A stretch of DNA of 64,000 nucleotides from Gammaproteobacteria bacterium (lineage in GTDB: Bacteria; Pseudomonadota; Gammaproteobacteria; CBDBNL01; JAAOII01), in the NCBI GenBank assembly GCA_965209035.1, contig OZ242372.1, positions 1,536,001 to 1,600,000 on the forward strand, read 5' to 3'. Every line of letters begins with the position of its first letter. Within the stretch, counting starts at the first letter, position 1. The notes under the pieces were generated by a model. That model saw nothing but the letters and a program-made list of their open reading frames with translations. It ran no database searches and was not told the DNA's origin. The position numbers and the translations under genes were made by a program. Shown here piece by piece: positions 17,637 to 58,333 of the stretch.

Positions 17637-20512
17637 CCATTAATATTTTTTAATAATTGAGTTAGTTCTTCTTTGTTAATTCTTTTCTTGAATACCACTT
17701 CAACTGAATCATTTTGTTGGTTCACAGCCTCAAAAAATTTTGTGGCATACTCAATCTTTCTTTGCTCTTCATCTGGTATCCTGCTTTGACGATCGTATCC
17801 TTTGGTTTCGACAATTAAAAATAATTTCTTGCCCGAATCGCATCGAATATAATATGCAAAATCGGGACTATAAGATTTATAAGGTGTCGGGATGCTTATT
17901 TTTGGCAACTTTGCAAATACTACAATTTTTTTATTACCAATTTTCAGTGGCTCTGTCTTGGCAACTTCTTTTTCTATACTAGAATCATAGACGATCTTAT
18001 CATAAAGATAATTTTCTGCCGGATATTCGGTTTGCTGAGTTACGTATCTGCCAATTTGATGTGCATCTATTTTCTTTTTGCAAATTTTGTATTCTTCATC
18101 TTGATAAAAGATGTTTCTTGCGTTTATGAAAACTTCATTCTCAAAAGCATAACTAATGCTCTGAACAACTACCTTATGAATTTCATCCTTGAAAATTGTT
18201 GTTAACAACTGTTGTGCTCGGGTCGGGTCTTTTTTTATTTTTTCTTCGGATAACATATTAAACATTTCACAACAAAATCGTATTGGTAGATTTTCTCTTT
18301 TGGCAAAGTTACCAATAAAATTTTTGTAACTACTTCTTGTAAAAAAACGGGCATACCCGGTTGGGTTTTCTTCTACGGTTTCAAATCTATTTTTATTATG
18401 ATTATAGACGTGTCGCTTTATTTTCTTTTCCACAGGATGAACATCTTCTCTTTCAAAAGAGCTTCTAACCGAACGAATTAAAGATTTTTCATCAATATTG
18501 TGATACCGAATACGTGCTTTGCGAGTAATGGTTTCCCACAAACTTTCAAATTCTTTAAATTTTTCTTGTCTTATACCAACTTGATTTACTATTCTATTGG
18601 CATTTATTACAGGGAGGTCAACTGCTCTTTTAAATTTTTGTATCAAAACTTCATACATTTCTTTGCCAAAGAGTTTTTGCAAACGTTCTCCTTGTTCTTG
18701 TAAAAAGTCATAGATTGAATCGTTAATCTTCCATATTCCGTCTGCATTGCTGATAGGAGAAATAACATTGGCATCTTCTAAATAGACTATCAAACGACCT
18801 ATGTGAGATTCAGTTAATCCAATTGCTTTCAACATATTCCGGGTTAACTTTTGGTAGGTAATACTATTCCCAACAATCTCATTTTGTATTTCTTCCACAA
18901 AATTTTCTTCTTGACCGGACACAATGATATCTAACATATTGATGTTGTAAAAATTACTTTCATTATTTTCGCAATATCCAATAGTTTGTCGTTTACCTTC
19001 TTGATCGACTGCCAATCGTAATCCTCTGCCCACCTGTTGGCGGCGTGATGTTTCTTGATCGGTTGATGCCAGTTTACATATCGTAAAGATGTTAGGGTTA
19101 TCCCATCCTTCTTGTAAGGCCCAAACTGAAAAAATGAATCTTAAGGGTTCTTTCGTAGATAATAGTTTTTCCTTTTCATTCAAAATTAGATCAACTCCTT
19201 CGGATTCTTTTGTCTCTCTTGAACCCTTGTCACCTGAAAAATATCCTTCGTGAACTCGTAATTGATTATTATCGTTATAGTCTTTTTGTAAATAGTCACG
19301 ATAGGTAGAACTTAATTTTTTCTTTAAAACAACTTTTCTCTGTCTCTTATATTCTTCTTCAAAAATATTTTTGATGCGCGGATTCCCTCCTCTATAATCG
19401 GATATGTTTGGGATGAAAAAAAGAGACAGCGTTTTTATACCTTTCTTAAATAAAATTTCCTCTTTGTTGAAATGAATTTCTATGGCTTGTTTTACCATAG
19501 TATGAATAGACAAGTCATTTAATTGATAATCGTTGGAGCTTAAAGAACGCTTTGTTCCGTTACTTAAAAATACTTCTCTTTTTTTCAAGCGAACAACATG
19601 GAAATCGTGCTCTTTTTTACCTGTGAACACCTCTATATTCTCTTTGCATCTTATATCTCTTACAAATTCTTCACCATCTTTAAAAAAATGAATACAAAGT
19701 GTATTGGGGTTTTTCCCCTTGTAAAATTTAATGCCGGTTTCTCTGTCTATTATTGTGGACACCTTGATTTTTTTTACCAGATAGTCACGAAATGCAGTGA
19801 TGCTATCTAACATATAAACAACATTTGATAACTTGAAATCATTATCAGTAGGGAAAGTTGCCCCAAATCTCAAACACAAAGACTTGGAAAAATAACACTC
19901 ATAAGTATTAACGAAACTGGCTCCTTTTAACAAATGTGGTTCGTCAATAAAAATTACCGGACTGAGTTCACCAATTGCAGATAACGGTGATTTTTGTTCA
20001 TAAAGTAAACTCTCATTTCTACGCCTAAGTTTTCTATCCGCTTCATTGTTTCCTGTTATAGAAGCACTTGTTAATATTAAGACTGAAAATTCTTGTTTAT
20101 TACGGATATAATCCAATACCTGATTTAATCCACTCTTATCACCATAAATGTGCTTTTTGATGCGTACATGGTATTCATGAAAAAAGTAATCGGATGTTAA
20201 ATCAATGTTTTGAAGGATGCAACTCTTAATAGCAAGGCGTGGAACAAAAACAACAAACTTATTGATGCCGTAATTTTTATTCATTTCATACATAGTTTTT
20301 AGGTAAGTAAAGGTTTTACCTGTTCCTGTTTCCATTAGAACATCTAATCGAGATTTTGTACTTAAATGGCTTTCTGGAATATTTTCTTTTTGTTGTAATT
20401 CTTTGATGCTTTCTTTAAGAGATGAAAAATCTCTCAAATTATCCGTAGATTCAAGGATTTTCATAATATTGTTTACACAATCCTCTTGGTATTTTTGCTT
20501 TTCAAATAACAT
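17630..20512 (-). CDS. res: Type III restriction endonuclease (Res)
   Basis: METGTGKT, IDEPH, WALQEGWDNPN, QQVGRGLRL, C-terminal PDF..VETKG nuclease motif. Confidence 0.93.
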   Translation of the reverse strand: MLFEKQKYQEDCVNNIMKILESTDNLRDFSSLKESIKELQQKENIPESHLSTKSRLDVLMETGTGKTFTYLKTMYEMNKNYGINKFVVFVPRLAIKSCILQNIDLTSDYFFHEYHVRIKKHIYGDKSGLNQVLDYIRNKQEFSVLILTSASITGNNEADRKLRRRNESLLYEQKSPLSAIGELSPVIFIDEPHLLKGASFVNTYECYFSKSLCLRFGATFPTDNDFKLSNVVYMLDSITAFRDYLVKKIKVSTIIDRETGIKFYKGKNPNTLCIHFFKDGEEFVRDIRCKENIEVFTGKKEHDFHVVRLKKREVFLSNGTKRSLSSNDYQLNDLSIHTMVKQAIEIHFNKEEILFKKGIKTLSLFFIPNISDYRGGNPRIKNIFEEEYKRQRKVVLKKKLSSTYRDYLQKDYNDNNQLRVHEGYFSGDKGSRETKESEGVDLILNEKEKLLSTKEPLRFIFSVWALQEGWDNPNIFTICKLASTDQETSRRQQVGRGLRLAVDQEGKRQTIGYCENNESNFYNINMLDIIVSGQEENFVEEIQNEIVGNSITYQKLTRNMLKAIGLTESHIGRLIVYLEDANVISPISNADGIWKINDSIYDFLQEQGERLQKLFGKEMYEVLIQKFKRAVDLPVINANRIVNQVGIRQEKFKEFESLWETITRKARIRYHNIDEKSLIRSVRSSFEREDVHPVEKKIKRHVYNHNKNRFETVEENPTGYARFFTRSSYKNFIGNFAKRENLPIRFCCEMFNMLSEEKIKKDPTRAQQLLTTIFKDEIHKVVVQSISYAFENEVFINARNIFYQDEEYKICKKKIDAHQIGRYVTQQTEYPAENYLYDKIVYDSSIEKEVAKTEPLKIGNKKIVVFAKLPKISIPTPYKSYSPDFAYYIRCDSGKKLFLIVETKGYDRQSRIPDEEQRKIEYATKFFEAVNQQNDSVEVVFKKRINKEELTQLLKNINGC

Positions 20513-20955: not shown

Positions 20956-22149
20956 ATGAAAAACATCCGGGTAGAAATTAAAGGTCAGGTCTTTACACCG
21001 GCAGAAATTGTGTTGCGTATGATTTCTTTAAGAAAGAACAAAGGCAATGTCCTGGAACCGAGTGCGGGAGACGGCGCTTTTTCAAGACATTTTAAGAAGG
21101 ATGTTGTAGTGTCTGTTGAAAAAGAGAAGGCGGTCATTAAAGATAAGGGAACATTAAATATGGACTTTTTTGATTTCCCAACAAAAGAAAAGTTTGATAC
21201 TATTATCGGGAATCCTCCGTATGTCAAACACAATAATATTGAAGGTGACACCTTGCGGAAATTGGATTATACTTTTTTTGACAAAAGAACCAACTTGTAT
21301 TTATTTTTCATTGAAAAATGCTTAAGACATTTGAGAAAAAAAGGGGAAATGATTTTGATTGTTCCAAGAGAATTTATTAACTTAACAAGCGCTAAAAAAT
21401 TGAATGAATTATTATGTGCAAAAGGAACAATCACCGATTATATCGACCTGGGGGATCAAAAAATATTCGCCGACGCATGTCCCAATGTGGCAATTTTTAG
21501 ATTTCAAAAAGATTGTTTTGACAGGAAAACAAACAGGAGTCTCACTTTTAATTGTATCAACGGCAAGATTTTATTTACAGGCTGCGAGAACAAGATGACT
21601 CTGGGCGAACTCTTTGATGTGAAGGTTGGGGCGGTGAGCGGTGCGGATAGTATTTTTACCGATGATAGCGGTAACGCTTCTTTTGTTTGTTCATATACGG
21701 CAAAAACCGGGAAAACCAAGAGAATGTTTTTTAATGTTAAGCATAGAAAACTTTCCTCCCACAAAGAAGCATTACTCAAAAGAAAAATTAAGAAGTTTGA
21801 TGAGAAAAACTGGTATATGTGGGGCAGAAATCATTTTATTTCCAATGAACCGAGAATATATGTAAATTGCAAGACACGCAATAAAACTCCTTTTTTTACA
21901 CACAGATCCGAATACTATGACGGCTCGGTTCTGGCTTTGTTCCCCAAAAGAGAGATGAACATAAAGAGATATATTGATATCCTTAATAAGGTTGATTGGG
22001 AAAAACAAGGGTTTGTTTGTAATGGCAGATATCTGTTTACACAAAGAAGTTTGACAAATGCTCTTATAAAAAGATCGCATGTGGGACCTGATGCCGGATT
22101 GTTCACGCAAAGAAGCTTAACAAATACTCTGTTCAATTCAAACCACTAA
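20956..22149 (+). CDS. Orphan N6-adenine DNA methyltransferase (gamma class, TaqI/Eco57I-like)
   Basis: GQVFTP, LEPSAGDGAF (motif I), IIGNPPY (motif IV), NLYLFFIEK. Confidence 0.88.
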   Translation: MKNIRVEIKGQVFTPAEIVLRMISLRKNKGNVLEPSAGDGAFSRHFKKDVVVSVEKEKAVIKDKGTLNMDFFDFPTKEKFDTIIGNPPYVKHNNIEGDTLRKLDYTFFDKRTNLYLFFIEKCLRHLRKKGEMILIVPREFINLTSAKKLNELLCAKGTITDYIDLGDQKIFADACPNVAIFRFQKDCFDRKTNRSLTFNCINGKILFTGCENKMTLGELFDVKVGAVSGADSIFTDDSGNASFVCSYTAKTGKTKRMFFNVKHRKLSSHKEALLKRKIKKFDEKNWYMWGRNHFISNEPRIYVNCKTRNKTPFFTHRSEYYDGSVLALFPKREMNIKRYIDILNKVDWEKQGFVCNGRYLFTQRSLTNALIKRSHVGPDAGLFTQRSLTNTLFNSNH

Positions 22150-23753: not shown

Positions 23754-24380
23754 ATGAAGGAGTTATTTTCCACCCACTCGGATAAAATTAAGAGGGTGTT
23801 GCCTATTTTGTTTAAGATGGCCGATTTGGAATGCAGCAGAGGCGGTAAGTTGGGAATGGAAATTGGCAATATGCGCGAAAAAATTTTGATAGCCCTGTAT
23901 ATCCATGTGTTTGGCAAAGAATGCGTATCCTTACCGTCGACTACCAAACCGGAAACAGATATATATGTGAAAGACACACCGATTTCCATTAAAACAAAAA
24001 CAGGCCCCGGCTATTCGGGTGTCAAATTAAGTTGGACGGTAGACAGGATTAAGGCGGAAGAATTTTGTCGCACTTATTTTCCGACATCCAACATTTTGTT
24101 TGTTAGGATAGAACGGGGGAAGCCGGGCGATTTTTGCTATATTCCTTTGGAGGTGCAGTTGGATGTGTTAAAGGAAAAAGGAGTGAATGCTTATTTAAAG
24201 AAGCCCAAAGAAGGGACAAATCCGAGAGGTGTTGAAATCTCGGCTGCTTGCTTAAAATTCTTGAAAGAACATAAAAAAACACATTGTTTGGTGATTGATT
24301 GGACAAGTGATCGGATTCCGGGAGAAGAGGATCCCTTATATAAATATGAACATTGGTTGAAACTATGGCGCAATCTATAA
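23754..24380 (+). CDS. Type II restriction endonuclease, ThaI-like
   Basis: LP.LF.MA.LE.SRGGKLGMEIGNMREKILIAL, ETDIYV..PISIKT (PD-D/ExK-like), PK.GTNPRGVE; overlaps an MTase. Confidence 0.75.
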   Translation: MKELFSTHSDKIKRVLPILFKMADLECSRGGKLGMEIGNMREKILIALYIHVFGKECVSLPSTTKPETDIYVKDTPISIKTKTGPGYSGVKLSWTVDRIKAEEFCRTYFPTSNILFVRIERGKPGDFCYIPLEVQLDVLKEKGVNAYLKKPKEGTNPRGVEISAACLKFLKEHKKTHCLVIDWTSDRIPGEEDPLYKYEHWLKLWRNL

Positions 24381-25384
24381 AAACGAAGACAAGCAGTTTT
24401 GGCACTGTGAGTCGGCGCGGGCATGACTCCAAACCGTTTTACGCGAAACGCCTTTACGCCGAGTTGCCCAAGGCAAAGCAGCCTGATGCTTCCGATCCTT
24501 CCGGTGCTTCATTATTGGAAAAGACCAAGAAAAATATAAAGAGCACACGGAAAACAGTCGGAGGTAAGAGTCGGCAGCCGGCAAGTTCTGTTAAAAAAAC
24601 ACAACAGCTTCCCCAACCGCAGGATGTCGGTCGCATAGAAAAGGGGGCTCTTTATTGCCGGGACAGCCGCGATATGCGCGAGTTGGCGGATGAATCTGTG
24701 GGGCTGATGATTACCTCGCCGCCGTATAACGTCGGCAAGGAATATGATGAAGATCTGTCGCTGGGCGAATATACGAAACTGCTGCGGGATGTTTTTGGAG
24801 AAACTTGGCGTGTGCTGGAAGTGGGCGGGCGTGCGTGCATTAATATTGCCAACATCGGTCGCAAGCCCTATATTCCGTTGCATGCGATGATTATTGAAAT
24901 GATGCGGGATCTGGGTTATGTGATGCGCGGTGAGATCATCTGGGACAAGGACGCCAGTGCCGGCTCGTCCTGTGCTTGGGGCAGTTGGCGTTCCGCCGCC
25001 AATCCGGTTCTGCGGGATCTGCACGAGTACATTCTTGTTTACAGCAAAGAAGACCTTGCCCGTGCCCATTCGGGCGAATCTACGATTGGTAAGGAGGATT
25101 TTTTAATGGCAACCAGAAGTGTTTGGCGTTTTCCGGCGGCAAGTGCCAGGCGTCTCGGGCATCCCGCCCCTTTCCCGGAGGAGTTGCCGCGGCGCTTGAT
25201 AGAATTGTATAGTTTTAAGGATGACTTGGTGTTGGACCCTTTTGTCGGCAGCGGCACGACTTGTCTGGCGGCGGCGCGCGGCGACAGGCGATATGTCGGT
25301 TATGATGTTTCCGCGGAATATATTTCTTTGGCACAGAAAAGGCTGGACGAATGGGGCGAACAAGCCGAAATTGGGTTATACTAA
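24365..25384 (+). CDS. N4-cytosine/N6-adenine DNA methyltransferase (beta class)
   Basis: ITSPPYNVG, HPAPFPEELP.RLI, VLDPFVGSGTT. Confidence 0.92.
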   Translation: MAQSIKTKTSSFGTVSRRGHDSKPFYAKRLYAELPKAKQPDASDPSGASLLEKTKKNIKSTRKTVGGKSRQPASSVKKTQQLPQPQDVGRIEKGALYCRDSRDMRELADESVGLMITSPPYNVGKEYDEDLSLGEYTKLLRDVFGETWRVLEVGGRACINIANIGRKPYIPLHAMIIEMMRDLGYVMRGEIIWDKDASAGSSCAWGSWRSAANPVLRDLHEYILVYSKEDLARAHSGESTIGKEDFLMATRSVWRFPAASARRLGHPAPFPEELPRRLIELYSFKDDLVLDPFVGSGTTCLAAARGDRRYVGYDVSAEYISLAQKRLDEWGEQAEIGLY

Positions 25385-37941: not shown

Positions 37942-38292
37942 CTACTTGTCAGCAATTTTGCGATAGTAGGATCTTATTTCTCCTACGAGCAAGGCGATCG
38001 CAATGAACAGCACCAAATCCTTAATAGACATCACTTGGGCGTCTTTTAACCAATGCATTCCTTTCGGTGCCAATTCATGGAAGATCCAAACACCTGCGGT
38101 TATGCCGTAAAGCACTGCCGCAAAGGATATCCCCAAGACAAAGATATAATGAAAACCCTCTTTTTTCTTGTCGGCTCTTTTTGCCTCCTTATCTTGGTGT
38201 TCCGGGTAGAGTAGCTTGCCGCCTCCATTTTTTGTGTCTTCTGCTTTCTTTTCAAGCAGGTTTAGTTTTTTATTTTGATTTTTGTTAGGCAT
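37942..38292 (-). CDS. Small 2-TM membrane protein, candidate toxin partner of Panacea antitoxin
   Basis: 116 aa; overlaps upstream DUF4065 gene by 8 nt. Confidence 0.65.
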   Translation of the reverse strand: MPNKNQNKKLNLLEKKAEDTKNGGGKLLYPEHQDKEAKRADKKKEGFHYIFVLGISFAAVLYGITAGVWIFHELAPKGMHWLKDAQVMSIKDLVLFIAIALLVGEIRSYYRKIADK

Positions 38293-38848
38293 TATTTTCT
38301 TGTTCGGCTATCTCCTCTAACCTTTTTTCGATGACATCATCAAAATGCTTTTTAATTTTCTTTGTTGGTATCACAGTTCCTCTTTCCCTCCTTTTATAAG
38401 TTTCCGCCCATGGCGTTCCGGGTTGATGTGTCAAAGACACAACCTCGCCAGCACTCTTACGCTTATAAGTATTCCAAACGACGGACAGTACTCTGCCTTC
38501 CGTCGTTTCCTCATTGACAGAACGGTATCTCAACTCTTCAACTTTTTCATCCCGGGATATTTCCAGACTGGGAACAAACTTCGTGATGGGTTTCCGCCCC
38601 CAATGTTGGAAGGCATGGTATACGGAAGGAATGACAGGACCAAACTTCCATGCCTGTAGGTCTTCCGCAATTAGTTTTTTGCCATCCATGATTGACAAAG
38701 CCCAACCATAACCAAAATAACACATCTTGACCAACCGGAGCAAATCAATATCAATATTTTGATCAGCCGCTTTCTTGATAAAGAAGTTTGCAATATGCTC
38801 CGATTTGTATGCGGAGATATGCTCTTTTATTTTTTGTTTCGTTTTCAT
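38285..38848 (-). CDS. Panacea domain (DUF4065/SocA-like) antitoxin
   Basis: IANFFI, LVKMCYF.YGW, QAWKFGPV.PSVY, LTHQPGTPW motifs. Confidence 0.88.
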   Translation of the reverse strand: MKTKQKIKEHISAYKSEHIANFFIKKAADQNIDIDLLRLVKMCYFGYGWALSIMDGKKLIAEDLQAWKFGPVIPSVYHAFQHWGRKPITKFVPSLEISRDEKVEELRYRSVNEETTEGRVLSVVWNTYKRKSAGEVVSLTHQPGTPWAETYKRRERGTVIPTKKIKKHFDDVIEKRLEEIAEQENNA

Positions 38849-39238: not shown

Positions 39239-41537
39239 TTATCTGCCTTGCGCCGAGAGGCCGCCCGGCAGGCAATTCAGGACCGGGTATTGGCTGCTTG
39301 TGCCAAGATTCCAAACGCTGAAGAATCCATTCGGCAGGTCATCCGCGTCCATCACTTCCATCACTTCGCCAGTGTCCCGATTACACCAGATGCCACCCCA
39401 GTCGGCATAGATGCCTGTGAAAGTAATCGGCGATTGCAATTCCGTCGTGGTCTTACCCTTACCCAGATTAAGAGCACTCATAGACAGCATGGTGGTGTCC
39501 GTATCCCAGTAAGACGCATTGACGGTGGTGGCATCATCGGCGACGCCCACCAATCCACCCGGACCACCCAGCGAAGCATCGACAGTTGAAACCCGCCCGC
39601 CGGCAGTATAAGAATAGCGAATCGTCGCACTACTTCCATCCCCAACCAGTCCGCTAATCGCAGGTTCCCGAGTCCCGGCAACACTTCCGTTGCGCACATA
39701 AACATAGTAAATATGAGAATCCAGCCCATACCCCACCAGTCCGCCAATATTAATGTTCCCGGCAACATCCGTGCCGGACACACCGGCATAGCGAATAGTA
39801 GCGGACTGACCATTTCCAATCAGTCCGCCAATACGACCGTTCCCGGTAACATCCGCGTCGGACACACTGGCATAGCGAATAGTAGCAGACCGACCACTTC
39901 CAACCAGCCCGCCAATAGCGTTACCGTCACTGCCACCATAGTCCGCGAAAACAGTGATACCGGATACACGGGCATAGCGAATATTAGCAGACAGACCATC
40001 TCCAATCAGTCCGCCGGCAGCGCCTCCGCCTGAGCCGGAGGAAGCACTTCCGCCGGATACATTCGCATGGCGAATGTTGGCAGACGGACCCTGCCCAACC
40101 AGCCCGCCAACACTACCGAGCCCGGCAACATCTGTGCCGGACACTTCGGTATAGCGAATAGTGGCGGACTGACCATTTCCAATCAGTCCGCCCACTGCGT
40201 TAGCATTACCATCTATCACACTGCCACGAACCGACAGATTTTCATAACTGGCATTCCTGCCATAGCCTGCCAGTGTGCCCACATCACTACCGGCATTGAA
40301 TTTGATAGTCGCATCCCGGAGATGCAGATTTTGAAGACTGCCGTTGAACGCACCAAATAAGCCCAGCCCAAAGTTCCTACCGGACACAGAGATAAACAGA
40401 TCGGCAAGAGTATGATCCCGACCATCAAACACAGCCGCATACGACGTATAACTCCGGCACTTGACATTAAACTGGTCTTCGTTATTTATGTCAGTACAGA
40501 AGCCGATCGGTTGCCAGCCGCTGCCACTCGTCCAAAGAGCTTGATTGCCGCTGCTACCGCTACCCGTGGCATAGGATTCCCCATCGCTAAAATTGAGCGA
40601 GCGCGTCAGTTCGTAGCCCCGGCAGCCGTCCGGGACCGGACAGCCCTCGGCACCCACGGCGGTAATATCGGAAATATTCCCATCATCCTCCCCATCGCCA
40701 TTGAGATCATCGCGCAGTAGGGCTAATTGATCCAAATTGTGAATCTCGATCAAGCCGTTATTATCATCGTCCACATCCGCCGTATCAAGCGTGCCGTCAT
40801 TGTCATCGTCCAAATCCTCATCGCTATCCTGACAGCCGTCGCCGTCATGGTCCGTAGACGGATTGGAGGTCCAACCCGTATCGCCGCGCGGACAGTCGTC
40901 GGCAAGATCATTCAGGCCATCATTGTCATCGTCATCATCACAGGCATCGCCTAGCGGATCCGTATCGTTATTGAGTTGTCGGGGATTAGCAATGCCGCGG
41001 CAGTTGTCCACCGCATTCGGAACTCCGTCCCTGTCAGTGTCTCCCGTCGGGTTGCCACCTCCGGGTCCGGTCCTTGCCGGGTTCGCCGCCGTAACCGCAG
41101 CTGCGCGGCCACCCGTATAGAGCACCACAATCGTTAGATTGTAGGCGGCATCATGCATCAGCCCCTCAAGAGTGATGCTCACGCGTGCACCGGCCAAGGT
41201 GCTCACATCCGGTGCCGTCAAATTTTGCATGCCGGCGTCGCCCGCATCTTGCGTATTCTCCCAAGTAATATTGAAGCCGGCAATATTGGGTTGATTCGGA
41301 TTCTTCCAAGAGACGACAAGACTCGTGTTGGTATCTCCCGCCACAAACTCAATCTCGGCAACACCGAAATTATCGGGGGGGGGGGGGACTACCGCCGCCT
41401 CCGCTTCCGCCGCCGCAAGCGGCGAGCAAGACGGCCGACAAGCCGATGGTTAATAATAGGTTGCTGCCGCGGTGTGCCGTTTGGCCGGCTGCGACGATGC
41501 CGTTGCTACGGATAGCGTGTATTGCGAATATGCTCAT
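39239..41537 (-). pseudogene. GLUG/TSP3/FN3 lipoprotein copy A, out of frame at poly-C(13)
   Basis: Same ATG and LAAC lipobox as copy B; G13 at 41375-41387; span 2299 = 3n+1. Confidence 0.85.
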
Positions 41538-41603
41538 AATGAATGATTGATTGTTTTTATTAAAGATAAAATCATTTTTGTCTTTTTTTACCCGCTTATC
41601 TGC

Positions 41604-43895
41604 TTATCTGCCTTGCGCCGAGAGGCCGCCCGGCAGGCAATTCAGAACGGGGTATTGGTTTGCCGTGCCCAGATCCCAAACACGAACGAAGGGGGCACCT
41701 GGCCCGGTAGCGGTAGCATCTTCCATCTCGGCGTCCGTCCTTGGATCGCACCAGAAGTTGCCCCAGTCGGCATAGATATTGGCCGAACCATCCGCGGCGG
41801 CGGTAGTAAAATCGGTCGGCGATTGCAACTCGGTCGTGGTCTTACCCCTACCCAGATTACGGGCACTCGCAGACAGCATGGTGGTGTCCGTATCCCAGTA
41901 AGTGGCATTGACGGTGGTGGCATCATTGGCAAGGCCCACCAATCCACCCAGAGCACCCAAAGTACCGGATGCTGAAACCCGCCCGCCGGCGGCATAAGAA
42001 TAGCGAATCGTCGCACCCTTCCCCGCCCCAACCAGTCCGCCAACTGCATCATCCAGATTTGCGGTAACACTTCCGTTGTGCACATAAACATAGTAAATAT
42101 CAGAATTCTGCCCGTTCCCGATCAGTCCGCCAGTACTTTTACTCCCGGCAACATCCGCATCGGACACACCGGCATAGCGAATATTAGCATGCACTCCGTC
42201 CCCAATCAATCCGCCAGTACTAGCACCCCCGGCAACATCCGCATCGGACACACTGGCATAGCGAATATTAGAACGCACTCCGTCCCCAATCAGTCCGCCA
42301 ACAGAACTACCGGCAAGGTTACTAGCGTCCGCGAAAACAGTGATGCCGGCTACACGGGCATAGCGAATATTAGCAGACTGCCCAAACCCAACCAGTCCGC
42401 CGAGATTACCTCCGCTTGCGCCGCTGGAAGCACTGCCGCCGGATACATTCGCATGGCGAATTTTAGCAGACTGACCATGCCCAACCAGCCCGCCAACACT
42501 ATTGACCCCGGCAACATCTGTGCCGGATACTTGGGTATAGCGAATAGTAGCAGACTGACCATCTCCAATCAGTCCGCCCACTCCGCTAGCAGCAGGACTA
42601 CTTATCACACTGCCACTAACCGACAAATTTTCATAATGGGCATTCCTGCCATAGCCTACCAGTGCGCCCACATCATCGGCACCGAAATTGATAGTCGCAT
42701 TCCGGAGATGCAGATTCTGAAGTCCGCCGTTGAATGCACCAAATAAGCCCAGCCCGTAGATCGGACCAAACGCAGAGATGAACAGATCGGCAAGAGTATG
42801 ATCCCGACCATCAAACACAGCTGCATACCCGGTGCAAACATTATTGTCAGTACAGGAGCCGATCGGTTGCCAGCCGCTGCCACTCGTCCAAAGAGCTTGA
42901 TTGCCGCTGCTACCGCTACCCGTGGCATAGGATTCCCCATCGCTAAAATTGAGCGAGCGCATCAGTTCGTAGCCCCGGCAGCCGTCCGGCAGCGGGCAGC
43001 CCTCGGAGCCCACGGCGGTAATATCGGAAATATTCCCATCATCCTCCCCATCGCCATTGAGATCATCGCGCAGTAGGGCTAATTGATCCAAATTGTGAAT
43101 CTCGATCAAGCCGTTATCATTGTCATCCACATCCGCCGTATCAAGCGTGCCGTCATTGTCATCGTCCAAATCCTCATCACTATCCTGACAGCCGTCGCCG
43201 TCATGGTCCGTAGACGGATTGGAGGTCCAACCCGTATCGCCGCGCGGACAGTCGTCGGCAAGATCATTCAGGCCATCATTATCATCGTCATCATCACAGG
43301 CATCGCCTAGCGGATCCATATCGCTATTGAGTTGCCGGGGATTAACAATGCCGCGGCAGTTGTCTTCCGCATTCGGAACTCCGTCCCTGTCAGTGTCTCC
43401 CGTCGGGTTGCCACCCCCGGGTCCGGTCCTTGCCGGGTTCGCCGCCGTAACCGCAGCTGCGCGGCCACCCGTATAGAGCACCACAATCGTTAGATTGTAG
43501 GCGGCATCATGCATCAGCCCCTCAAGAGTGATGCTCACGCGTGCACCGGCCAAGGTGCTCACATCCGGTGCCGTCAAATTTTGCATGCCGGCGTCGCCCG
43601 CATCTTGCGTATTCTCCCAAGTAATATTGAAGCCGGCAATATTGGGTTGATTCGGATTCTTCCAAGAGACGACAAGACTCGTGTTGGTATCTCCCGCCAC
43701 AAACTCAATCTCAGCAACACCGAAATTATCGGGGGGGGGGGGGGGACTACCGCCGCCTCCGCTTCCGCCGCCGCAAGCGGCGAGCAAGACGGCCGACAAG
43801 CCGATGGTTAATAATAGGATGCTGCCGCGGTGTGCCGTTTGGCCGGCTGCGACGATGCCGTTGCTACGGATAGCGTGTATTGCGAATATGCTCAT
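41604..43895 (-). CDS. GLUG/TSP3/FN3 surface lipoprotein copy B, in frame, poly-C(15)
   Basis: LAAC lipobox, GGGS-PPPPP linker, FN3-like domain, DxDxDG Ca-binding repeats, VGGLIG repeats; G15 at 43731-43745. Confidence 0.9.
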   Translation of the reverse strand: MSIFAIHAIRSNGIVAAGQTAHRGSILLLTIGLSAVLLAACGGGSGGGGSPPPPPDNFGVAEIEFVAGDTNTSLVVSWKNPNQPNIAGFNITWENTQDAGDAGMQNLTAPDVSTLAGARVSITLEGLMHDAAYNLTIVVLYTGGRAAAVTAANPARTGPGGGNPTGDTDRDGVPNAEDNCRGIVNPRQLNSDMDPLGDACDDDDDNDGLNDLADDCPRGDTGWTSNPSTDHDGDGCQDSDEDLDDDNDGTLDTADVDDNDNGLIEIHNLDQLALLRDDLNGDGEDDGNISDITAVGSEGCPLPDGCRGYELMRSLNFSDGESYATGSGSSGNQALWTSGSGWQPIGSCTDNNVCTGYAAVFDGRDHTLADLFISAFGPIYGLGLFGAFNGGLQNLHLRNATINFGADDVGALVGYGRNAHYENLSVSGSVISSPAASGVGGLIGDGQSATIRYTQVSGTDVAGVNSVGGLVGHGQSAKIRHANVSGGSASSGASGGNLGGLVGFGQSANIRYARVAGITVFADASNLAGSSVGGLIGDGVRSNIRYASVSDADVAGGASTGGLIGDGVHANIRYAGVSDADVAGSKSTGGLIGNGQNSDIYYVYVHNGSVTANLDDAVGGLVGAGKGATIRYSYAAGGRVSASGTLGALGGLVGLANDATTVNATYWDTDTTMLSASARNLGRGKTTTELQSPTDFTTAAADGSANIYADWGNFWCDPRTDAEMEDATATGPGAPFVRVWDLGTANQYPVLNCLPGGLSAQGR

Positions 43896-43961
43896 AATGA
43901 ATGATTGATTGTTTTTATTAAAGATAAAATCATTTTTGTCTTTTTTTACCCGCTTATCTGC

Positions 43962-46377
43962 TTACCTGCCTTGCGCCGAGAGGCCGCCCGGCAGGCAATT
44001 CAGAACGGGGTATTGGTTTGCCGTGCCTAGATCCCAGACACGAACGAAGGGGGCACCCGGCCCGGTAGCGGTAGCATCTTCCCTCTCAGCGTCCGTCCTT
44101 GGATCGCACCAGAAGTTGCCCCAGTCGGCATAGATATTGGCCGAACCATCCGCGGCGGCGGTAGTAAAATCGGTTGGCGATTGCAATTCCATTGTGGTCT
44201 TACCCTCACCCAGATTAAGGGCACTCGTAGACAGCATGGTGGTGTCCGTATCCCAGTAAGTGGCATTGACGGTGATCCTATCGGCAGCACCCACCAACCC
44301 ACCCGGACCACCTAAGCTATTGGAGGTTGAAACCTCTCCGCCGGCGGCATAAGAATAGCGAATCGTCGCCTTACCTCCATCCCCAACCAGTCCGCCGATC
44401 GCATCATCCCGAGTTCCGGCAACACTTCCGTTGTGCACATAAACATAGCGAATATTAGCAGACTCACCAAACCCAACCAGTCCGCCAACATTGGAATTCC
44501 CGGAAACATCCGCGCCGGACACACCGGCATAGCGAATAGTAGCATTCTCTCCTCTCCCAATCAATCCGCCAACACGCTCATTAACTCCGGCAACATCCAC
44601 GCCGGACACACCGGCATAGCGAATATTAGCAGACGGGCCATTCCCAACCAGTCCGCCAACATTGGAATTCCCGGAAACATCCGCGCCGGACACACCGGCA
44701 TAGCGAATAGTAGCATTCTCTCCTCTCCCAACCAGTCCGCCAACATTAACACTCCCGGAACTCCCAGTGACATCCGTGCCGGACACACCGGCATAGCGAA
44801 TATTAGCATGATCCCCAAGCCCAATCAGTCCGCCGGCAAGTCCGCCGGCAACCCTTCCGCCGGATACATTCGCATGGCGAATTTTAGCAGACGGACCATT
44901 CCCAACCAGTCCGCCAACAAAGCCAACCAGTTCGCTAACCTGTCCGGCCCCGGCAACATCTGTGCCGGACACACGGGCATAGCGAATAGTGGCGGACTGA
45001 CCATCTCCAATCAGTCCGCCCACTCTGTCAGCATTAGGACTACTTATCACACTGCCACGAACCGACAGATTTTCATAATGGGCATTTCTGCCATAGCCTA
45101 CCAGTGCACCCACCCCATCGAAACCGAAATTAATAGTCGCATTCCGGAGATGCAGATTCTGAAGACTGCCGTTGAATGCGCCAAATAAGCCCAGCCCGAG
45201 TATCCTGATCGTAGAGGGCCCAGAGATGAACAGATCGGCAAGAGTATGGTCCCGACCATCAAACACAGCCGCATACGACACATAACTCCGGCATCTGACC
45301 ACAAACAGGTTTACGACATCTACGGCAGTACAGGAGCCGATCGGCTGCCAGCCGTTGCCACTGCGATTTGTCCAAACAGCTTGATTGTCGCTGCTACCGC
45401 TACCCGTGGCATAGGAATCCGCATCGCTGAAATTGAGCGAGCGCATCAGTTCGTAGCCCCGGCAGCCGTCCGGGACCGGACAGCCCTCGGCACCCACGGC
45501 GGTAACATCGGAAATATTCCCATCATCCTCCCCATCGCCATTGAGATCATCGCGCAGCCGCGCCAAGTCATCCAATGTGTAGATTTCTATCAAGCCGTTA
45601 TCATTGTCATCCACATCCGCCGTATCAAGCGTGCCGTCATTGTCATCGTCCAAATCCTCATCGCTATCCTGACAGCCGTCGCCGTCATGGTCCGTAGACG
45701 GATTGGAGGTCCAACCCGTATCGCCGCGCGGACAGTCGTCGGCAAGATCATTCAGGCCATCATTATCATCGTCATCATCACAGGCATCGCCTAGCGGATC
45801 CGTATCGTTATTGAGTTGCCGGGGATTAACAATGCCGCGGCAGTTGTCCGCCGCATTCGGAACTCCGTCCCTGTCAGTGTCTCCCGTCGGATTGCTACCC
45901 CCGGGTCCGGTCCTTGCCGGGTCCGCCGCCGTAACCGATGCCGCGCGGCCACCCGTATAGAGCACCACAATCGTTAGATTGTAGGTGGCATCATGCATCA
46001 GCCCCTCAAGAGTGATGCTCACGCGTGCACCGGCCAAGGTGCTCACATCCGGTGCTGTCAAATTTTGCATGCCGGCGTCGTCCGCATCTTGCGTATTCTC
46101 CCAAGTAATATTGAAGCCGGCAATATTGGGTTGATTCGGATTCTTCCAAGAGACGACAAGACTCGTGTTGGTATCTCCCGCCACAAACTCAATCTCAGCA
46201 ACACCGAAATTATCGGGGGGGGGGGGGGGGACTACCGCCGCCTCCGCCACCGCCGCAAGCGGCGAGCAAGACGGCCGACAAGCCGATGGTTAATAATAGG
46301 ATGCTGCCGCGGTGTGCCGTTCGGCCGGCTGCGACGATGCCGTTGCTACGGATAGCGTGTATTGCGAATATGCTCAT
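43962..46377 (-). pseudogene. GLUG/TSP3/FN3 lipoprotein copy C, out of frame at poly-C(16)
   Basis: ATG at 46377; G16 at 46215-46230; span 2416 = 3n+1. Confidence 0.85.
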
Positions 46378-48533
46378 AATGAATAATTGATTGTTTTATT
46401 AAAAGATAAAATCAGCATAGTTAATATTTTACCATATTTCGGCGAGACTAATGCAAAGACCAGGCAAAGACTATGCAAAGACTAGGCAAACATCCGTTCC
46501 GCTTGTCGGTTATTGTTTACTGCCGTTGTTGTGCCGGGCTGAGGGGAAGGCAGTTCAAGGCGGGGTATTGGTTGGCCGCACCCAGATCCCACAGACGAAT
46601 GAAAGGGGCACCGGGGCCGCCGGCATCTGTGGTTTCCCGGATCTCGAGACTAACCGGATCACACCAGAAGTTGCCCCAGAGTGCGTAGATGTTGTCCGTC
46701 CCGGTGAAGTTAGTCGGGGTCTGCAGCTCCGCAGTTGTCTTCGCCGCCGTTCCTGTCTTCCCCACATGAACACCTCCCGACACTAGCGACTGCCTTGTGG
46801 TTTGCGTGTCCCAATAGGATGCGATGAATAATGTTGTCGTTATGAAAAGGGCGGAATTACCGATCAAGCCGCCGGTAAATGCATTGCCTGAGATCTCGCC
46901 ACTGGCCACATAGGAATAACGACCTTCAGACATGCTCCCGATGCCGGACAATCCACCCACCGATCGAAGAAAAACAGAAATGCGACGACCTCCAAGACCA
47001 CCAACACTGCCACGGACCACATAGGAATGACGAACATCGGCACCTATCCCATTACCGAGCACCCCGCCAATAAACGTACCACCATGCGCATCAAGGGCTG
47101 TAATATTCGCATCGGACACGGACACGGCACGAATCGTCGCACCCTCTCCATCGCCGACCAGACCGCCGAGACGATTGTCACCGGCAACAGTCACATCGGA
47201 CACAGCCGCGGCATGAATCGTCGCACGCCGTCCATCGCCGACCAGACCGCCGACACGATCATCATCGGCACTGGCATGGTCATCAGCGGCACGCACAGTC
47301 GCATCGGACACGAAGGCGGCCCGAAGCGTCGCATCCCGTCCATCGCCGACCAGGCCGCCGATCTGATCATCACCGGCAACAGCCGCACCGGACACGGATA
47401 CCGCACGCATCATAGTATCCGCACCGGACGCATCGCCAACCAGACCACCGACAGAATCCGCGGACGCACTCATGATCACTCCCCCGATAACCGACAGATT
47501 CTCATAACGAGCATTGCGGCCATAGCCCGCCAGCAGACCCACATCATTGGCGCCGCCACTGACATTCGCATTTCGGAGATGCAGATTTTGGATAGTGCCA
47601 TTGAACGCACCAAACAAGCCGATGCCATTGACGGTATGATTGACAGAAATGAACAGATCGGCAATGCGATAACCGCCGCCGTCAAACACAGCCGTCCAAG
47701 GAGTGCAAGTATTCCGGGCGGAGCAGGAGCCGATCGGCTGCCAGCCGCTGCCGCTGCGATTTGTCCAAGCAGCCTTATTAGCACTGCCCGGCAAATAGGA
47801 AGCCGCATCGCTGAAATTCAGCGAGCGGGTTAACTCATAGCCTGCACAGCCGTCCGGGAGCGGGCAGCCCGCGGCACCCACAGAGGTAATCTCGTCAATA
47901 TTCTCATCATCATCTCCATCGCCGTCCAGATCATCGCGCAGTAAGGCTAACTGGTCCAAGCTGTGAATCTCTATCAAGCCGTCACCGTCATAGTCCAAAT
48001 CATCCGCATTCGCCACACCATCACCATCAATATCGTCCGGATCCGTTCCGGTGATGCCTTCAACCGAAGTTGAAGCCACCGAAGTGCCATCCGCATAACG
48101 CACTGTAACTGTGATGCGATAGGTGGCAGCATAGTTTAGATTCGTAATCTTATATGTATTATCCGAAGCACCCGCCACAACATTCGCCAGGGAATCAGTA
48201 AGTTCCATTTCTCCTCTATCGGTCGGATCGGCATCATCGCCAACATTGATCCAATTAATATTGAACCCGCTGATACTCTCCCGGTTTGGATTGGTCCAAC
48301 TCACGATAATATTATTCCCACTGACCATGGTTCGGATACCGGAAACAGCCAGAGGATCGGGAGGAGGAACAATAGGGTTATCGATATCATCCGGATCCCG
48401 CCCGGTCGTGACTTGAACCGAACCCAAAACTACGGGATCTTGACCCTCATAACGCACCGTCACTGTGATTTTGTAAGTAGCCGCATAGGTTAGATTCGTA
48501 ATCTTATATGTATTATCCGAAGCACCCGCCGCA

Positions 48534-49837
48534 TGCATGATCTCATAAAGGTTCTGGACTCTGAGTTTGGTATTGTGCGTCCTCAGATCAAGCAGCCGGA
48601 TGTTCTGTCGGACGGGTCGAAAATAGATCCGGCAACGGGTCTCCGGTATGTGGAGCTAGATGAATGAAACGGGCAAGAAAGATGGATAGCTGTTTTGCTC
48701 TCACCGCCGCAGACAGCGGAGGCTTGTTGTTGATAAAACTGTCTAGGTGTATCCGCTGGCAAGACGGTACGGTGTGCGAGAGCGGCTGCACCGCGGAGGT
48801 GATTTGAAATGAGAGGAACACGTTTACGCTACATTGGTTATCGCGTGCGCGGTTTCAATAAAATGGTGGTTTTAGCAAACAAATATTCAAACATGTCTAA
48901 AACCACCAAAATCAAACTGGACACCTTAGCGTTCGCGCGCAAACATGGTGTCGCGGCGGCGCTGGATCATGCCGGGATCAGTCGTGCTACATTCTACGAG
49001 TGGCAGCGGCGTTTCCGTGAAGGCGGGGTCGATGAACTGGCGAACAACTATGGGTATCAGCCCAAGCGGTCCAACACCTGGCCACCGGCACTGATTACCA
49101 AGATCCGATCTTGGCGACAACAGCGTCCGAACATCGGTGCCGGTAAACTGGTCTGCTTGTTACCCGAATGGTGTCAGCAGCGCGGGCTGCCGCTGCCCAG
49201 CCAATCAACGCTCTCTCGCATCATTGCCGATGACCCGGATAAGATGCGGTGCAAACCATCGCGGTCCGTGCCGAAACGCCTGCGGCAAGGTGCTCCGCGC
49301 GAGCGCAAGGACATCCGCTTTGTTGCGGGCCGGAGAGGTGAATGTGTTGCCTTTGATACGCTCGTCCGCATCGTCGATGGCCGGCGCTTTTATTGGCATG
49401 TCGGCATTGATCTATTTTCCCGCTTCTCACTGGTCAGTGTCGACACCTCGGCTGCTTCGGCCAGTTCCGCCCGGCTCTTTACCGCCATGCAAAACATACT
49501 CGGCACTCGGATCGAAAAAGTCCTCACCGATAATGGCAGTGAGTTCGCCAAAGACTTTCACCGGGTCGTGACCGCAAACGGCAGCACCCACTGGTATACT
49601 TATCCAAGGAAACCGCAAATGAATGCACACTGCGAACGGTTTAATCGCACTCTCTGGGAAGAGTTCGGTTGTCATATGCGGCATCTCTTGGTTAAGGATA
49701 TGCCGGCATTCAACGCCAAACTCATCGAGTGGTTGGCTTGGTATAATCTGGAACGTCCCCATTATGCTCTCAAACAACTCTCGCCAATCCAGTTTTTGCA
49801 AAAACAAAAAAAGTCCAGAAATGGGTGGGATCATACA
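48534..49837 (+). mobile_element. IS481-like insertion sequence (1304 bp), 5-bp TSD CCGCA
   Basis: IRL TGCATGATCTCATAAAGGTTCTGGACT vs IRR(rc) TGTATGATCCCACCCATTTCTGGACT; CCGCA at 48529-48533 and 49838-49842. Confidence 0.92.
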
Positions 49838-49864
49838 CCGCAACATTCGCCCGGGGAGGATTAA
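48809..49864 (+). CDS. DDE transposase (HTH + rve integrase core)
   Basis: GISRATFYEW HTH, VLTDNGSEF, PQMNAHCERFNRT, YNLERPH. Confidence 0.93.
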   Translation: MRGTRLRYIGYRVRGFNKMVVLANKYSNMSKTTKIKLDTLAFARKHGVAAALDHAGISRATFYEWQRRFREGGVDELANNYGYQPKRSNTWPPALITKIRSWRQQRPNIGAGKLVCLLPEWCQQRGLPLPSQSTLSRIIADDPDKMRCKPSRSVPKRLRQGAPRERKDIRFVAGRRGECVAFDTLVRIVDGRRFYWHVGIDLFSRFSLVSVDTSAASASSARLFTAMQNILGTRIEKVLTDNGSEFAKDFHRVVTANGSTHWYTYPRKPQMNAHCERFNRTLWEEFGCHMRHLLVKDMPAFNAKLIEWLAWYNLERPHYALKQLSPIQFLQKQKKSRNGWDHTPQHSPGED

Positions 49865-50478
49865 ATTCCTCTATGCCGCCATCGCTCGCATTGGCAACAT
49901 TTGAGTTCACAACCCAATTAATATTGAACCCGGTGATATTATCCTGTTCCGGATTGGTCCAACTCACGGTAATATTATTCCCACTGGCAGTGGCTTCGAT
50001 ACCGGAAACAGCCCGACCATCACCGCCGTCGGAACCGCCGCCGCCACAAGCGGCGAGCAAGACGGCCGGCAGGGCGATGGTTAATAATAGGATGAATAAT
50101 ATTGTGCCGCGGTGTGCCGTTCGGCTGGCTGCGGTGATGCCGTTGCTACGGATAGCGTGTATTGCGAATATGCTCATAATGAATAATTGATTGTTTTATT
50201 AAAAGATGAAATCAGCATAGTTAATATTTTACCCTATTTCGGCGAGGCTAGGCAGGGGCTAGGCAGGGACTAGGCACTTGCTATGAACCGGAGGACTGCG
50301 TGTGTGGGGGTGGTGACGGGGGCTTTTTGCCCCCGTATCTTGTTTGAGTGTCCCCCGATGTGACTGTTATAACAGTTAAGGGAACCTTTAATTAATGCGT
50401 TGCGTTATATCCGTCCGCAATACTTCCGAGAAAATCATGCCGGGATGGGCTTTTTGTCATCCGCTTCAAAATCTCAGT

Positions 50479-52800
50479 TTATCCAATTTGGCGATTAACC
50501 GAAAGGCGTAGTTGTTGCAGATTGCGTTTCTTTAGGATGCTCGGCACGGATCCTTTGTTTCCCGGCTTACTCAGGCGGGAATTCCATTTTGTCCATTGCA
50601 GCACACTCTCGCCGTTTTCCGTAATCAGAACTGCGTCGCCGGTTTGTAAGATCAGAGTTTGGCGCAAGGTGTCGCCCTTGCTCAACTTCATCAAAGTGTT
50701 TCCTCTGCCGGCCTTCATTTTGGGGATCTGTTGAATGTCCGCTACGATCACGCGCCCCTTCGCGGAAAGACAAAGAACATAGATCCCCGCGATCTTCGCG
50801 GTCCCCGCGGTTTTTGCTTCTTTGTTGGGAATCGGCAGCGGCTGCACCAATCCGGCGTTGTTCTTAATCCTCATCACCAACTTGCCGCGCTTGCGTCCTT
50901 TCGCCAGCATATCACCGTAGTTGGCAATAAAAGCATGGCCGGTTTTTGACACCAGCAGAAAGTTTTCCGCCGCCGTGGCAAGGGCCGCTCCCGAAATGGT
51001 CACCCCGTCGGCGATATCCAATCGGCTGCTCAGCGGCTCGCCCAGGCCGCGCGCCGAAGGCAAGTCGGCGGCCGGGAGTGTGTATGCCCGCCCGCTGTTA
51101 TCGAAAAACAAAGCATATTGGTCGCTATATCCCTCTGTCGCGCCGAGCAGGCTGTCGCCGTCGCGATAGGAAAATTCTTCCGCCTTGAGTTCGTGTCCTT
51201 TTGCCAGCCTGACCCAGCCTTCCGTTGATACGACCAGGGTAACCGCTTCTCGCCCGATCGTCTGTTCCTGTTTGAGTATCCGGGCTGCCGGCGCTTTGTC
51301 TTTCTCGGCAAACTGTGTTCGGCGAGCATCGCCAAATTCTTTTTTGATCCGCTTTAAGTCGTCTTTCATTTGTTTGGTGATCTTGTCTTCGGACTTTAGA
51401 GTGGTCTCCAGATAGCGTCTTAGGTCGGTTAGTTTTTCTTCTTCGCCCCGAATCTTCTCTTCTTCCAGTTTTGCCAGATGGCGTAACTTGGTTTCCAAAA
51501 TGGCTTCCGCCTGGACTTCGGTAAGCGAGAATTTTTTGATTAGAATCGGTTTGGGATGGTCGTTGTTGCGGATGATTTTAATCACTTCGTCCAGATCCAG
51601 GTAAACTCTCAGCAATCCTTCCAATATATGCAGCCGGGCAAGAATTTTATCCAGTTGTGCTTGCATCCGTTTTTTGACGGTCTCCCGGCGAAAATCCAGC
51701 CATTCAAACAGGATGCTGTCCAAGGATCTTGTTTGGGGTTTCCCCCCGGTGCCGATGACATTGAGGTTGACGCGGACGCTCTTTTCCAGGTCGGTGGTGG
51801 CAAACAGATGTGCCATCAGGCTATCCGGCTCCTTGCCGCGGCGCATGAGGATCACTAAATGAATCGGGTTTTCGTCGTCCGACTCGTCGCGCAGGTCCGT
51901 GATCATAGGAAGTTTCCGGTTCTGTATCTGCTGCCGTATTTGTTCCACGATGCGCAACACCGAGGTCTGCGGCGGCAAATCGGTGATGATCACTTTTTGT
52001 CCTTCCTGTTTGTATGCGGCGCGCACCTGCATATTGCCTCTGCCGGTCACATACATTTCTTCCAGTGCCTGCTCCGAAGACACAATAATACCGCCGCAGG
52101 GGAAGTCGGGCATGGGCATCATTTTGCGAATCTTTTGAATCAGTCTTCTTGTCTCCTGTGTTGTTTGCGGCCGCTTTTTTTGGTCTAATAGGAACCTGCA
52201 AACTTCCGTTATTTCGCTCAGATTATGCGAAGGGATATCCGTTGCCATGCCAACGGCGATGCCGGAGGCTCCGTTTAGCAGAAGGTTTGGTACCTGTGCC
52301 GGCAGCAATTTCGGCTCTTGCATTGTATTGTCAAAGTTCGGTTGCCATTCCGCGGTTGCCTGCTCCAATTCGTTGAGCAGAAGTTCCGCATAGGGGGTGA
52401 GCCGCGCTTCGGTGTAACGCATGGCGGCAAAAGATTTGGGGTCGTCAGTAGATCCCCAGTTTCCTTGCCCGTCAATTAACGGATATCTGGTGGAAAACTT
52501 TTGCGCCATCAAAACCATAGCCTCGTAACATGCCACATCTCCGTGCGGATGATACTTGCCAAGGACATCGCCAATGGTGCGCGCCGATTTCTTGTATTTT
52601 GCCCCTTTGGCGAGTCCCAGTTCGGACATTGCGTAGATGAGCCTGCGTTGAACCGGTTTTAAGCCATCGGCAAGTTGCGGCAGTGCTCGATCCAGAATAA
52701 CAAACATCGAGTAGTTGAGGTAGGAACGCTCCACATAGTCCGCCAGATTTTCGAGTTCCGGCGGGCGATGTTTTGGTTCTTTTTTTGCTTTGGTTGCCAT
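50479..52800 (-). CDS. parC: DNA topoisomerase IV subunit A
   Basis: [43 protein letters not shown]. Confidence 0.96.
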
Positions 52801-58249: not shown

Positions 58250-58333
58250 GCCGAGATGGTGAAATTGGTAGACACGCTAGCTTCAGGAGCTAGTGGGAGT
58301 AATCCCGTGGAGGTTCGAGTCCTCTTCTCGGCA
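58250..58333 (+). tRNA. tRNA-Leu(CAG), CCA not encoded
   Basis: Acceptor GCCGAGA/TCTCGGC, anticodon arm CTAGC-TTCAGGA-GCTAG, long variable arm, GGTTCGAGTCC. Confidence 0.95.

Follow-up and report, generated by a model that had tools for sequence, protein, structure and literature searches.

Phase variation by changes in repeat length is a textbook mechanism that is known mostly from mucosal pathogens. A stretch of 64 kb from an uncultured gammaproteobacterium (positions 1,536,001-1,600,000 of OZ242372.1; hereafter, the window) carries four related lipoprotein genes, three of which contain a long poly-C tract near the 5' end, and raises the question of whether these genes are switched on and off through the tracts, or whether the tracts reflect gene decay or misassembled run lengths. 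The initial annotation had read the tracts as slipped-strand ON/OFF switches, and this reading is supported by the placement of long runs in the genome, by their repeated gain, by the pattern found in a sister genus and by tract lengths in contigs that are not multiples of three. It appears likely that slipped-strand mispairing at the tracts provides phase variation of a diversified repertoire of surface proteins, much as in opa and hpuA of Neisseria; the system is real, belongs to a known type of contingency locus and is probably functional. The host genome (G000; 2.24 Mb, 2 contigs, 92.7% complete) was compared with a genome of a sister genus in the same family (G001) and with further relatives (G002, G003, G005 and the only 72% complete G004). 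The host ParC was placed in a long-branched gammaproteobacterial group with 15 database proteins, one of them labelled 'Candidatus Portiera sp.' at 54%, and separate from 82 other rows.

All four genes are encoded on the minus strand. Copy A (39239..41537) comprises a leader, lipobox, FN3, TSP3-like acidic repeats, a GLUG beta-helix and a C-terminal cap, and goes out of frame at a C13 tract (41375..41387). Copy B (41604..43895) is intact and encodes a 763-aa lipoprotein in which a C15 tract (43731..43745) reads as five prolines, and copy C (43962..46377) is out of frame at a C16 tract (46215..46230); as assembled, B is ON and both A and C are OFF. These tracts are poly-C on the coding (minus) strand and are the sole C/G runs of 8 or more bases in the window, and the positions, lengths and frames initially assigned to them were exact. 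Translation from the shared start ends after 55 codons in A and C and continues for 763 in B. Beyond the tract, A remains open for 711 codons and C for 750, in agreement with the more than 700 first reported, and both align to B without stops. Like contingency loci, A, B and C each carry a 5' coding repeat whose length sets the reading frame.

Copy D was described as tractless and split by an insertion sequence, as is indeed the case. Its 5' part (49838..50177, minus strand) encodes the leader, the lipobox and the first half of an FN3 unit, and its 3' part (46517..48533, minus strand) two further FN3-like units and a beta-helix. Between them lies a 1304-bp element (48534..49837, plus strand) with a 5-bp target duplication and a transposase ORF (48809-49864), which we take to be of the IS481 type from its rve/HTH domains and TG...CA ends. 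The combined length of the two halves of D, minus one duplication, is divisible by three, and the element therefore inserted into a gene that was still intact. Twenty full-length copies of the element, at 94% or more identity, are found in G000; head-to-tail pairs occur at two sites (G000:C1:1176729-1179330 and 679332-681934), and an end-to-end joint with five letters in between is present in contigs of three sequencing runs. From base 250 on, the body of D is 88-100% identical, in 250-nt tiles, to that of a tract-bearing gene elsewhere (G000:C1:48393-50743; L165), which joins an A/B/C-type leader with a C25 tract to a D-type body. This chimera, itself out of frame, indicates that a leader can be transferred, together with its switch, from one body to another.

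The same signal peptide and LAAC lipobox, followed by Gly and with no Asp at +2, are found in all four copies, as had been noted, which by sequence makes them bacterial lipoproteins, i.e., substrates of Lgt and LspA. Family leaders are long genome-wide, with the frame open for 34-169 codons upstream of the lipobox Cys, and similar leaders are seen in database homologs. The GLUG/TSP3/FN3 domain assignment held for GLUG (PF07581; 30.4 bits, cut-off 20.5) and fn3 (over its cut-off) in copy B, but in the same copy TSP_3 reached only 22.5 of the 25 bits required, and copy D matched fn3 alone. A family profile does match COMP and thrombospondin-2 at E 1e-20, and A, B and C contain four DxDxDG motifs each. 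The predicted structure of B without its leader (pLDDT 82.7, pTM 0.69; 50-row alignment) starts with an FN3 sandwich, followed by an acidic segment of low model quality and then a capped beta-helix, and on this model copy B is assigned to the GLUG-motif right-handed beta-helix proteins.

The best fold match of this model is the N-terminal beta-helix of a streptococcal IgA1 protease (6xja, 773-1086; Z 25.1, rmsd 3.1 over 270 residues, 16% identity), which is also matched by profile at E 1.2e-9; BACOVA_03286 scores Z 22.0, and polysaccharide enzymes rank behind at Z 19 or less. Foldseek by itself gave weak beta-helix and FN3 matches only, and the ESM Atlas only leads below 0.9 (fn3 and GLUG clusters). 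The M26 IgA1 metalloproteases and BACOVA_03286 (6xja, 7uvk, 3n6z) are alike in beta-helix fold and sequence, but the tract genes have no middle or C-terminal protease domain and carry the helix alone on a lipid-anchored FN3/TSP3-like stalk. In the IgA1 protease, according to the accessible text of its description, the beta-helix domain lies apart from the HEMTH active site (PMC7695701). A role as M26 IgA1/Zmp protease was rejected, since HEXXH is found in none of the 11 tract-gene frames and the likeness is confined to the N-terminal helix.

Divergence among A, B and C is unevenly distributed. DNA identity is 94-100% over the first 200 columns and drops to 68-91% in most of the helix. The dN/dS comparison downstream of the tract, which the initial annotation had proposed, found stop-free bodies with values of 0-0.58 outside the beta-helix (0-0.40 in the FN3 and TSP3-like parts, 0.43-0.58 in the cap) and 0.86-1.05 within it. 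Across 8 helix rungs the GGLxG frame is nearly fixed, position +5 agrees in 2 of 24 pairs and position +7 in 4 of 22. The copies thus combine a constant stalk with a variable tip; they had been called interchangeable but are not simply so, as they share the stalk and diverge in the beta-helix. The variable helix is most likely a non-catalytic binding surface, putatively displayed outside the cell. The presence of LolB, and of GspD over its cut-off, in G000 points to a possible route by which the proteins would become exposed. A search for the Slam exporter matched in none of the 6 genomes, though its control likewise matched nowhere.

The array described as four paralogs does consist of four genes, but these are only 4 of about 83 family genes in the genome. 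In G000, 90 frames match the family, 83 of them with at least 400 codons, for a total of 252 kb or about 11% of the genome. Copy B has matches at 35-93 sites in every one of four genomes from the host's own family, compared with 0-2 sites in 26 further genomes, and G001 holds at least 150 family modules. In five named sponge-type or unclassified genomes, four had no family match and one a weak match. Relatives were found in none of 605 candidates from JGI metagenome contigs and in none of 473 from viral contigs, and four of four metagenome pattern matches were unrelated. Giant multi-module family frames of 3843 codons (G000:C1:1702396-1713927) and 7296 codons (G001, near C1:570000-586000) were also seen.

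With long runs defined as those of 11 or more bases, the distribution of C/G runs in G000 is discontinuous: counts for lengths 6 to 10 are 444, 43, 20, 5 and 1, and are followed by 18 runs of 11-25, where geometric extrapolation, depending on the ratio used, predicts 0.02 to 3.8. Runs of A/T end at 10, though they are far commoner at 7. Of the 17 long chromosomal C/G runs, 11 are located in the 5' windows of family genes, which make up 1.43% of the chromosome (binomial p 6e-17, which overstates the significance, as near-copies do not count as independent), and none in the family bodies, which make up 10.6%; runs of 4-7 are not enriched in these 5' windows. On a leader tree of 74 genes (9 of the 83 lacked a matched lipobox and were excluded), the 11 tracts require 6 changes, at least 5 of them forced by strong branches. 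The tracts are of three types, namely poly-C after the linker, poly-G directly after the Cys and poly-C before the lipobox. The remaining seven long runs comprise one in a type ISP-like restriction-modification (R-M) gene, one in frame in a gene on the second contig (C2) and five between genes or at gene ends. In the R-M gene, a C25 run (G000:C1:1841581-1841605; L164) followed by (CA)4 splits the frame between its DEAD and helicase C parts. Below the threshold, a G10 run (G000:C1:1518462-1518471) lies just upstream of a methyltransferase-like frame, its motif recognized by eye.

Four of the 11 tract genes in G000 are in frame and seven are out, and ten are intact to the C-terminal cap. Such genes could also be expected from neutral decay, in which a Gly/Pro linker drifts to pure G or C runs and slippage then kills redundant copies, OFF genes being young pseudogenes. 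Family copies do decay, as is seen from copy D, disrupted by its insertion, from C1:1185604, where a second frameshift accompanies that at the tract, and from gene fragments, and Gly and Pro codons abound in the linkers. Only 11 of the 83 family genes (approx. 13%) bear a tract and about 70 have no switch; most copies, and all of those in G002 and G003, are tractless, which fits decay as well. However, codons are mixed in 62 of 66 family Gly runs and in 99 of 103 non-family Pro runs, tracts also occur in the leader before the lipobox, a part that does not encode the linker, as well as in the R-M genes of three genomes, and six of the seven OFF genes in G000 are without a second lesion. Neutral decay is consequently considered unlikely. 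Against switching itself stand the small share of family genes with a tract, the decay of single copies such as D and C1:1185604, the tractless families of G002 and G003 and the 5 of 18 long runs in G000 that lie between genes or at gene ends.

Slipped-strand switching is further supported by the sister genus. G001 has 44 long runs, all of which were read; 34 are at the heads of lipoprotein genes (32 with a family HMM match, 2 by lipobox alone), 7 in R-M genes, 1 in the leader of a secreted protein, and 2 are unassigned. The R-M genes concerned (L125, L136, L138, L142, L150, L153, L154) encode an HsdS, four type ISP enzymes and two methyltransferases, and their C/G runs are 16-32 long, five being out of frame. 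The repeats fall on surface and R-M genes more often than chance would allow. Given the number of family modules in G001, most of them have no tract there either. Among paralog pairs with flanks at least 90% alike, tract lengths differ in eight of eight, e.g., 26 and 11 with identical 60-nt flanks, or 36 and 18. Of the other relatives, G002 and G003 have no tract on the family (0 of 6 and 0 of 4 runs, respectively), though both carry it, and G004 has no long run in its 72% complete sequence. G005 has a single long run, a C25 (L093:1501-1525) in the leader of a lipoprotein that carries a LamG domain and belongs to a different family. A GT11 glycosyltransferase gene carries C12 in G002 (L158:2971-2982) and C11 in G003 (L112:1501-1511), and in G002 a C16 (L159:3059-3074) splits a type ISP gene. 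Loss of mismatch repair as the cause of the runs was ruled out, since MutS and MutL are whole in all six genomes of the order, which indicates that there is no general mutator state.

Long-read consensus sequence errs most at homopolymers, and an assembly of 2 contigs suggests long reads; the runs could, therefore, be real but assembled about one base off, with all copies in frame and the tract a constitutive poly-proline spacer. The share of tract genes in frame, 4 of 11 in G000 and 15 of 34 in G001 (31 called by script, with 14 ON and 17 OFF, and 3 by eye), fits such error and switching alike. Logan contigs of four sequencing runs (X1-X4) were compared over window positions 45300-52800, which include tract C, copy D, the insertion and parC. 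X1 to X3 stem from one sample, perhaps the assembly's own, with no library on record, and contigs of this kind drop minor forms. Over tract C, the contigs of X1 and X3 are ungapped (16) and that of X2 is three bases shorter (13), and all three show the A/B-type linker; since flanks are shared, a mixed path among copies is possible if the contigs are built, as we assume, from 31-base words. A word of that length spans the whole run, so that both out-of-frame lengths, 16 and 13, exist in the reads. In the second sample (X4), depth was zero at the tract, and related DNA elsewhere, parC included, was covered at approx. 1-11x and was mostly 90-99% alike.

Had the true lengths been 12, 15 and 15, the 15 path would dominate, but the contigs among those listed kept 16, 13 and 16. 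Among shorter homopolymers, 320 runs of 7-10 are situated in long frames that remain intact and 20 may mark breaks, of which 18 were inspected and mostly look like junctions between neighbouring genes. Moreover, differences of 15-18 bases between near-identical paralogs in G001 exceed a one-base error, and runs of 12-25 would slip even if they were in frame. An error in assembled length is thus regarded as improbable.

A further alternative is that slippage by RNA polymerase or the ribosome yields some in-frame protein from every copy, such that tract length would tune the amount of product rather than set it ON or OFF. Slippage during transcription is known mainly from A/T runs, which argues against this alternative, as those of G000 do not exceed 10 bases. 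In addition, the tracts of A, B and C stand behind the lipobox, and a wrong-frame stop follows right after. In G001, many tracts precede a possible second start, as tuning would allow: of 26 tracts that precede the lipobox, 20 are followed by an in-frame ATG or GTG, which makes their ON/OFF assignment uncertain, and they may act through a leader frame instead. As in A to C, the five G001 tracts downstream of the lipobox (2 ON, 3 OFF) constitute simple frameshift switches. Ribosomal shifting has been raised for a lipoprotein gene with G10 in Mycoplasma agalactiae, according to the part of that report available (PMC2824730). Overall, tuning of this kind is judged very improbable, and ON/OFF switching remains the preferred reading.

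If the tracts are ON/OFF switches, replication slippage would add or remove bases in the poly-C run, and one length in three would join the lipidated leader to the body to give the full lipoprotein, the other two giving a 55-residue stub. The full product would consist of a membrane anchor, an FN3 and TSP3-like stalk and a beta-helix tip with variable loop positions, which would be exported by Lol and then probably by type II secretion. Cells of a clone would differ in which of the 11 switchable members of the family of about 83 genes they make, with about 70 others unswitched, and switching would vary what a host or phage sees. We infer the reversibility of switching, the surface display, the binding role and the selective agent alike.

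Independent switching of the four copies, as first proposed, is doubtful, since A and B show no promoter-like box of the type seen before C and D. An extended -10-like box (TG-N-TAAAAT) lies upstream of copy C (46426..46434, minus strand) and a TAAAAT box upstream of copy D (50226..50231, minus strand), both read by eye and the former absent from the site list of the promoter scan. By eye, no TAAAAT box precedes B or A, both of which begin 66 bases after the previous stop, and A and B may depend on the promoter of C. The terminator scan of the window listed no terminator-like sites on the minus strand in the C-B and B-A gaps. Together with the presence of Rho in the genome, this suggests that expression of B and A could be reduced whenever copy C is OFF. 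Counts in the promoter and terminator scans were no higher than in shuffled sequence (15 vs 10.9 and 10 vs 10.5, respectively).

Several known systems resemble this locus in part. The opa genes of Neisseria form a multigene family of up to 12 integral outer-membrane proteins with a CTCTT pentamer in the leader (PMC5354566). As far as the available text goes, both are surface multigene families with conserved and hypervariable regions in which a 5' coding repeat switches each gene. Unlike Opa, the proteins described here are beta-helix lipoproteins, their repeats are mononucleotide runs of C or G at several positions, and approx. 13% of some 83 copies are switchable; the family is not Opa and only works like it. 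The lipoprotein gene hpuA is set ON or OFF by a stretch of 7-19 G residues within its coding sequence (PMC3352162), and in this the accessible account matches A to C. However, HpuA as described there is an unrelated, single-copy haemoglobin-receptor partner of a TonB-dependent transporter, and no such partner gene adjoins the array. Paralogous surface lipoproteins with 5' poly-G of up to 13 have been reported from M. agalactiae (spma/P48-like) and M. bovis (P68) (PMC2824730). These are wall-less pathogens, the spma runs lie in the 5' UTR, and the text available mentions no GLUG beta-helix; by comparison, the longest runs here are 25 in G000 and 38 in G001. R-M and surface genes are among the classes listed for phase variation in Neisseria in the text seen of PMC5953494, and the lipoprotein and R-M genes that bear runs in G001 match these classes.

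In the literature searched, which covered few subscription papers, no description of phase-variable switches on GLUG proteins was found, in line with the initial annotation. The probable switches described here sit on an undescribed, hugely expanded lipoprotein family of an uncultured gammaproteobacterial lineage, and their tracts are very long. We tentatively consider a two-tier variable coat, which is less likely than not to prove correct, in which 80 to at least 150 beta-helix modules diversify at fixed loop positions and a leader-and-tract switch that is portable, repeatedly arisen and recombinable would be laid over them. Such a coat could take up to 2^11 states in this genome and up to 2^34 in that of the sister genus, which would match the antigenic variation of pathogens in scale; with restriction systems switched by the same device, the driver would then be suspected in phage or in innate host recognition. 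Two of the genera carry switches on the family and a third does not, which provides a ready contrast. As the switch state can be read from DNA, existing reads would allow selection by a host or phage for the ON or OFF state of individual surface proteins to be studied in nature without culture.

Elsewhere in the window, a Panacea/SocA-like antitoxin gene (38285-38848, minus strand) follows directly after copy A and is itself followed by a gene for a small membrane protein without a Pfam match (37942-38292, minus strand), the two possibly forming a toxin-antitoxin pair. A type III-like res/mod pair and two further DNA methyltransferases (15822-20512, 20956-22149 and 24353-25384) have no long run. 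The window also holds an ORF of 937 aa without a Pfam match (4737-7550, plus strand) and one tRNA (58250-58333, plus strand), its sole Rfam match.
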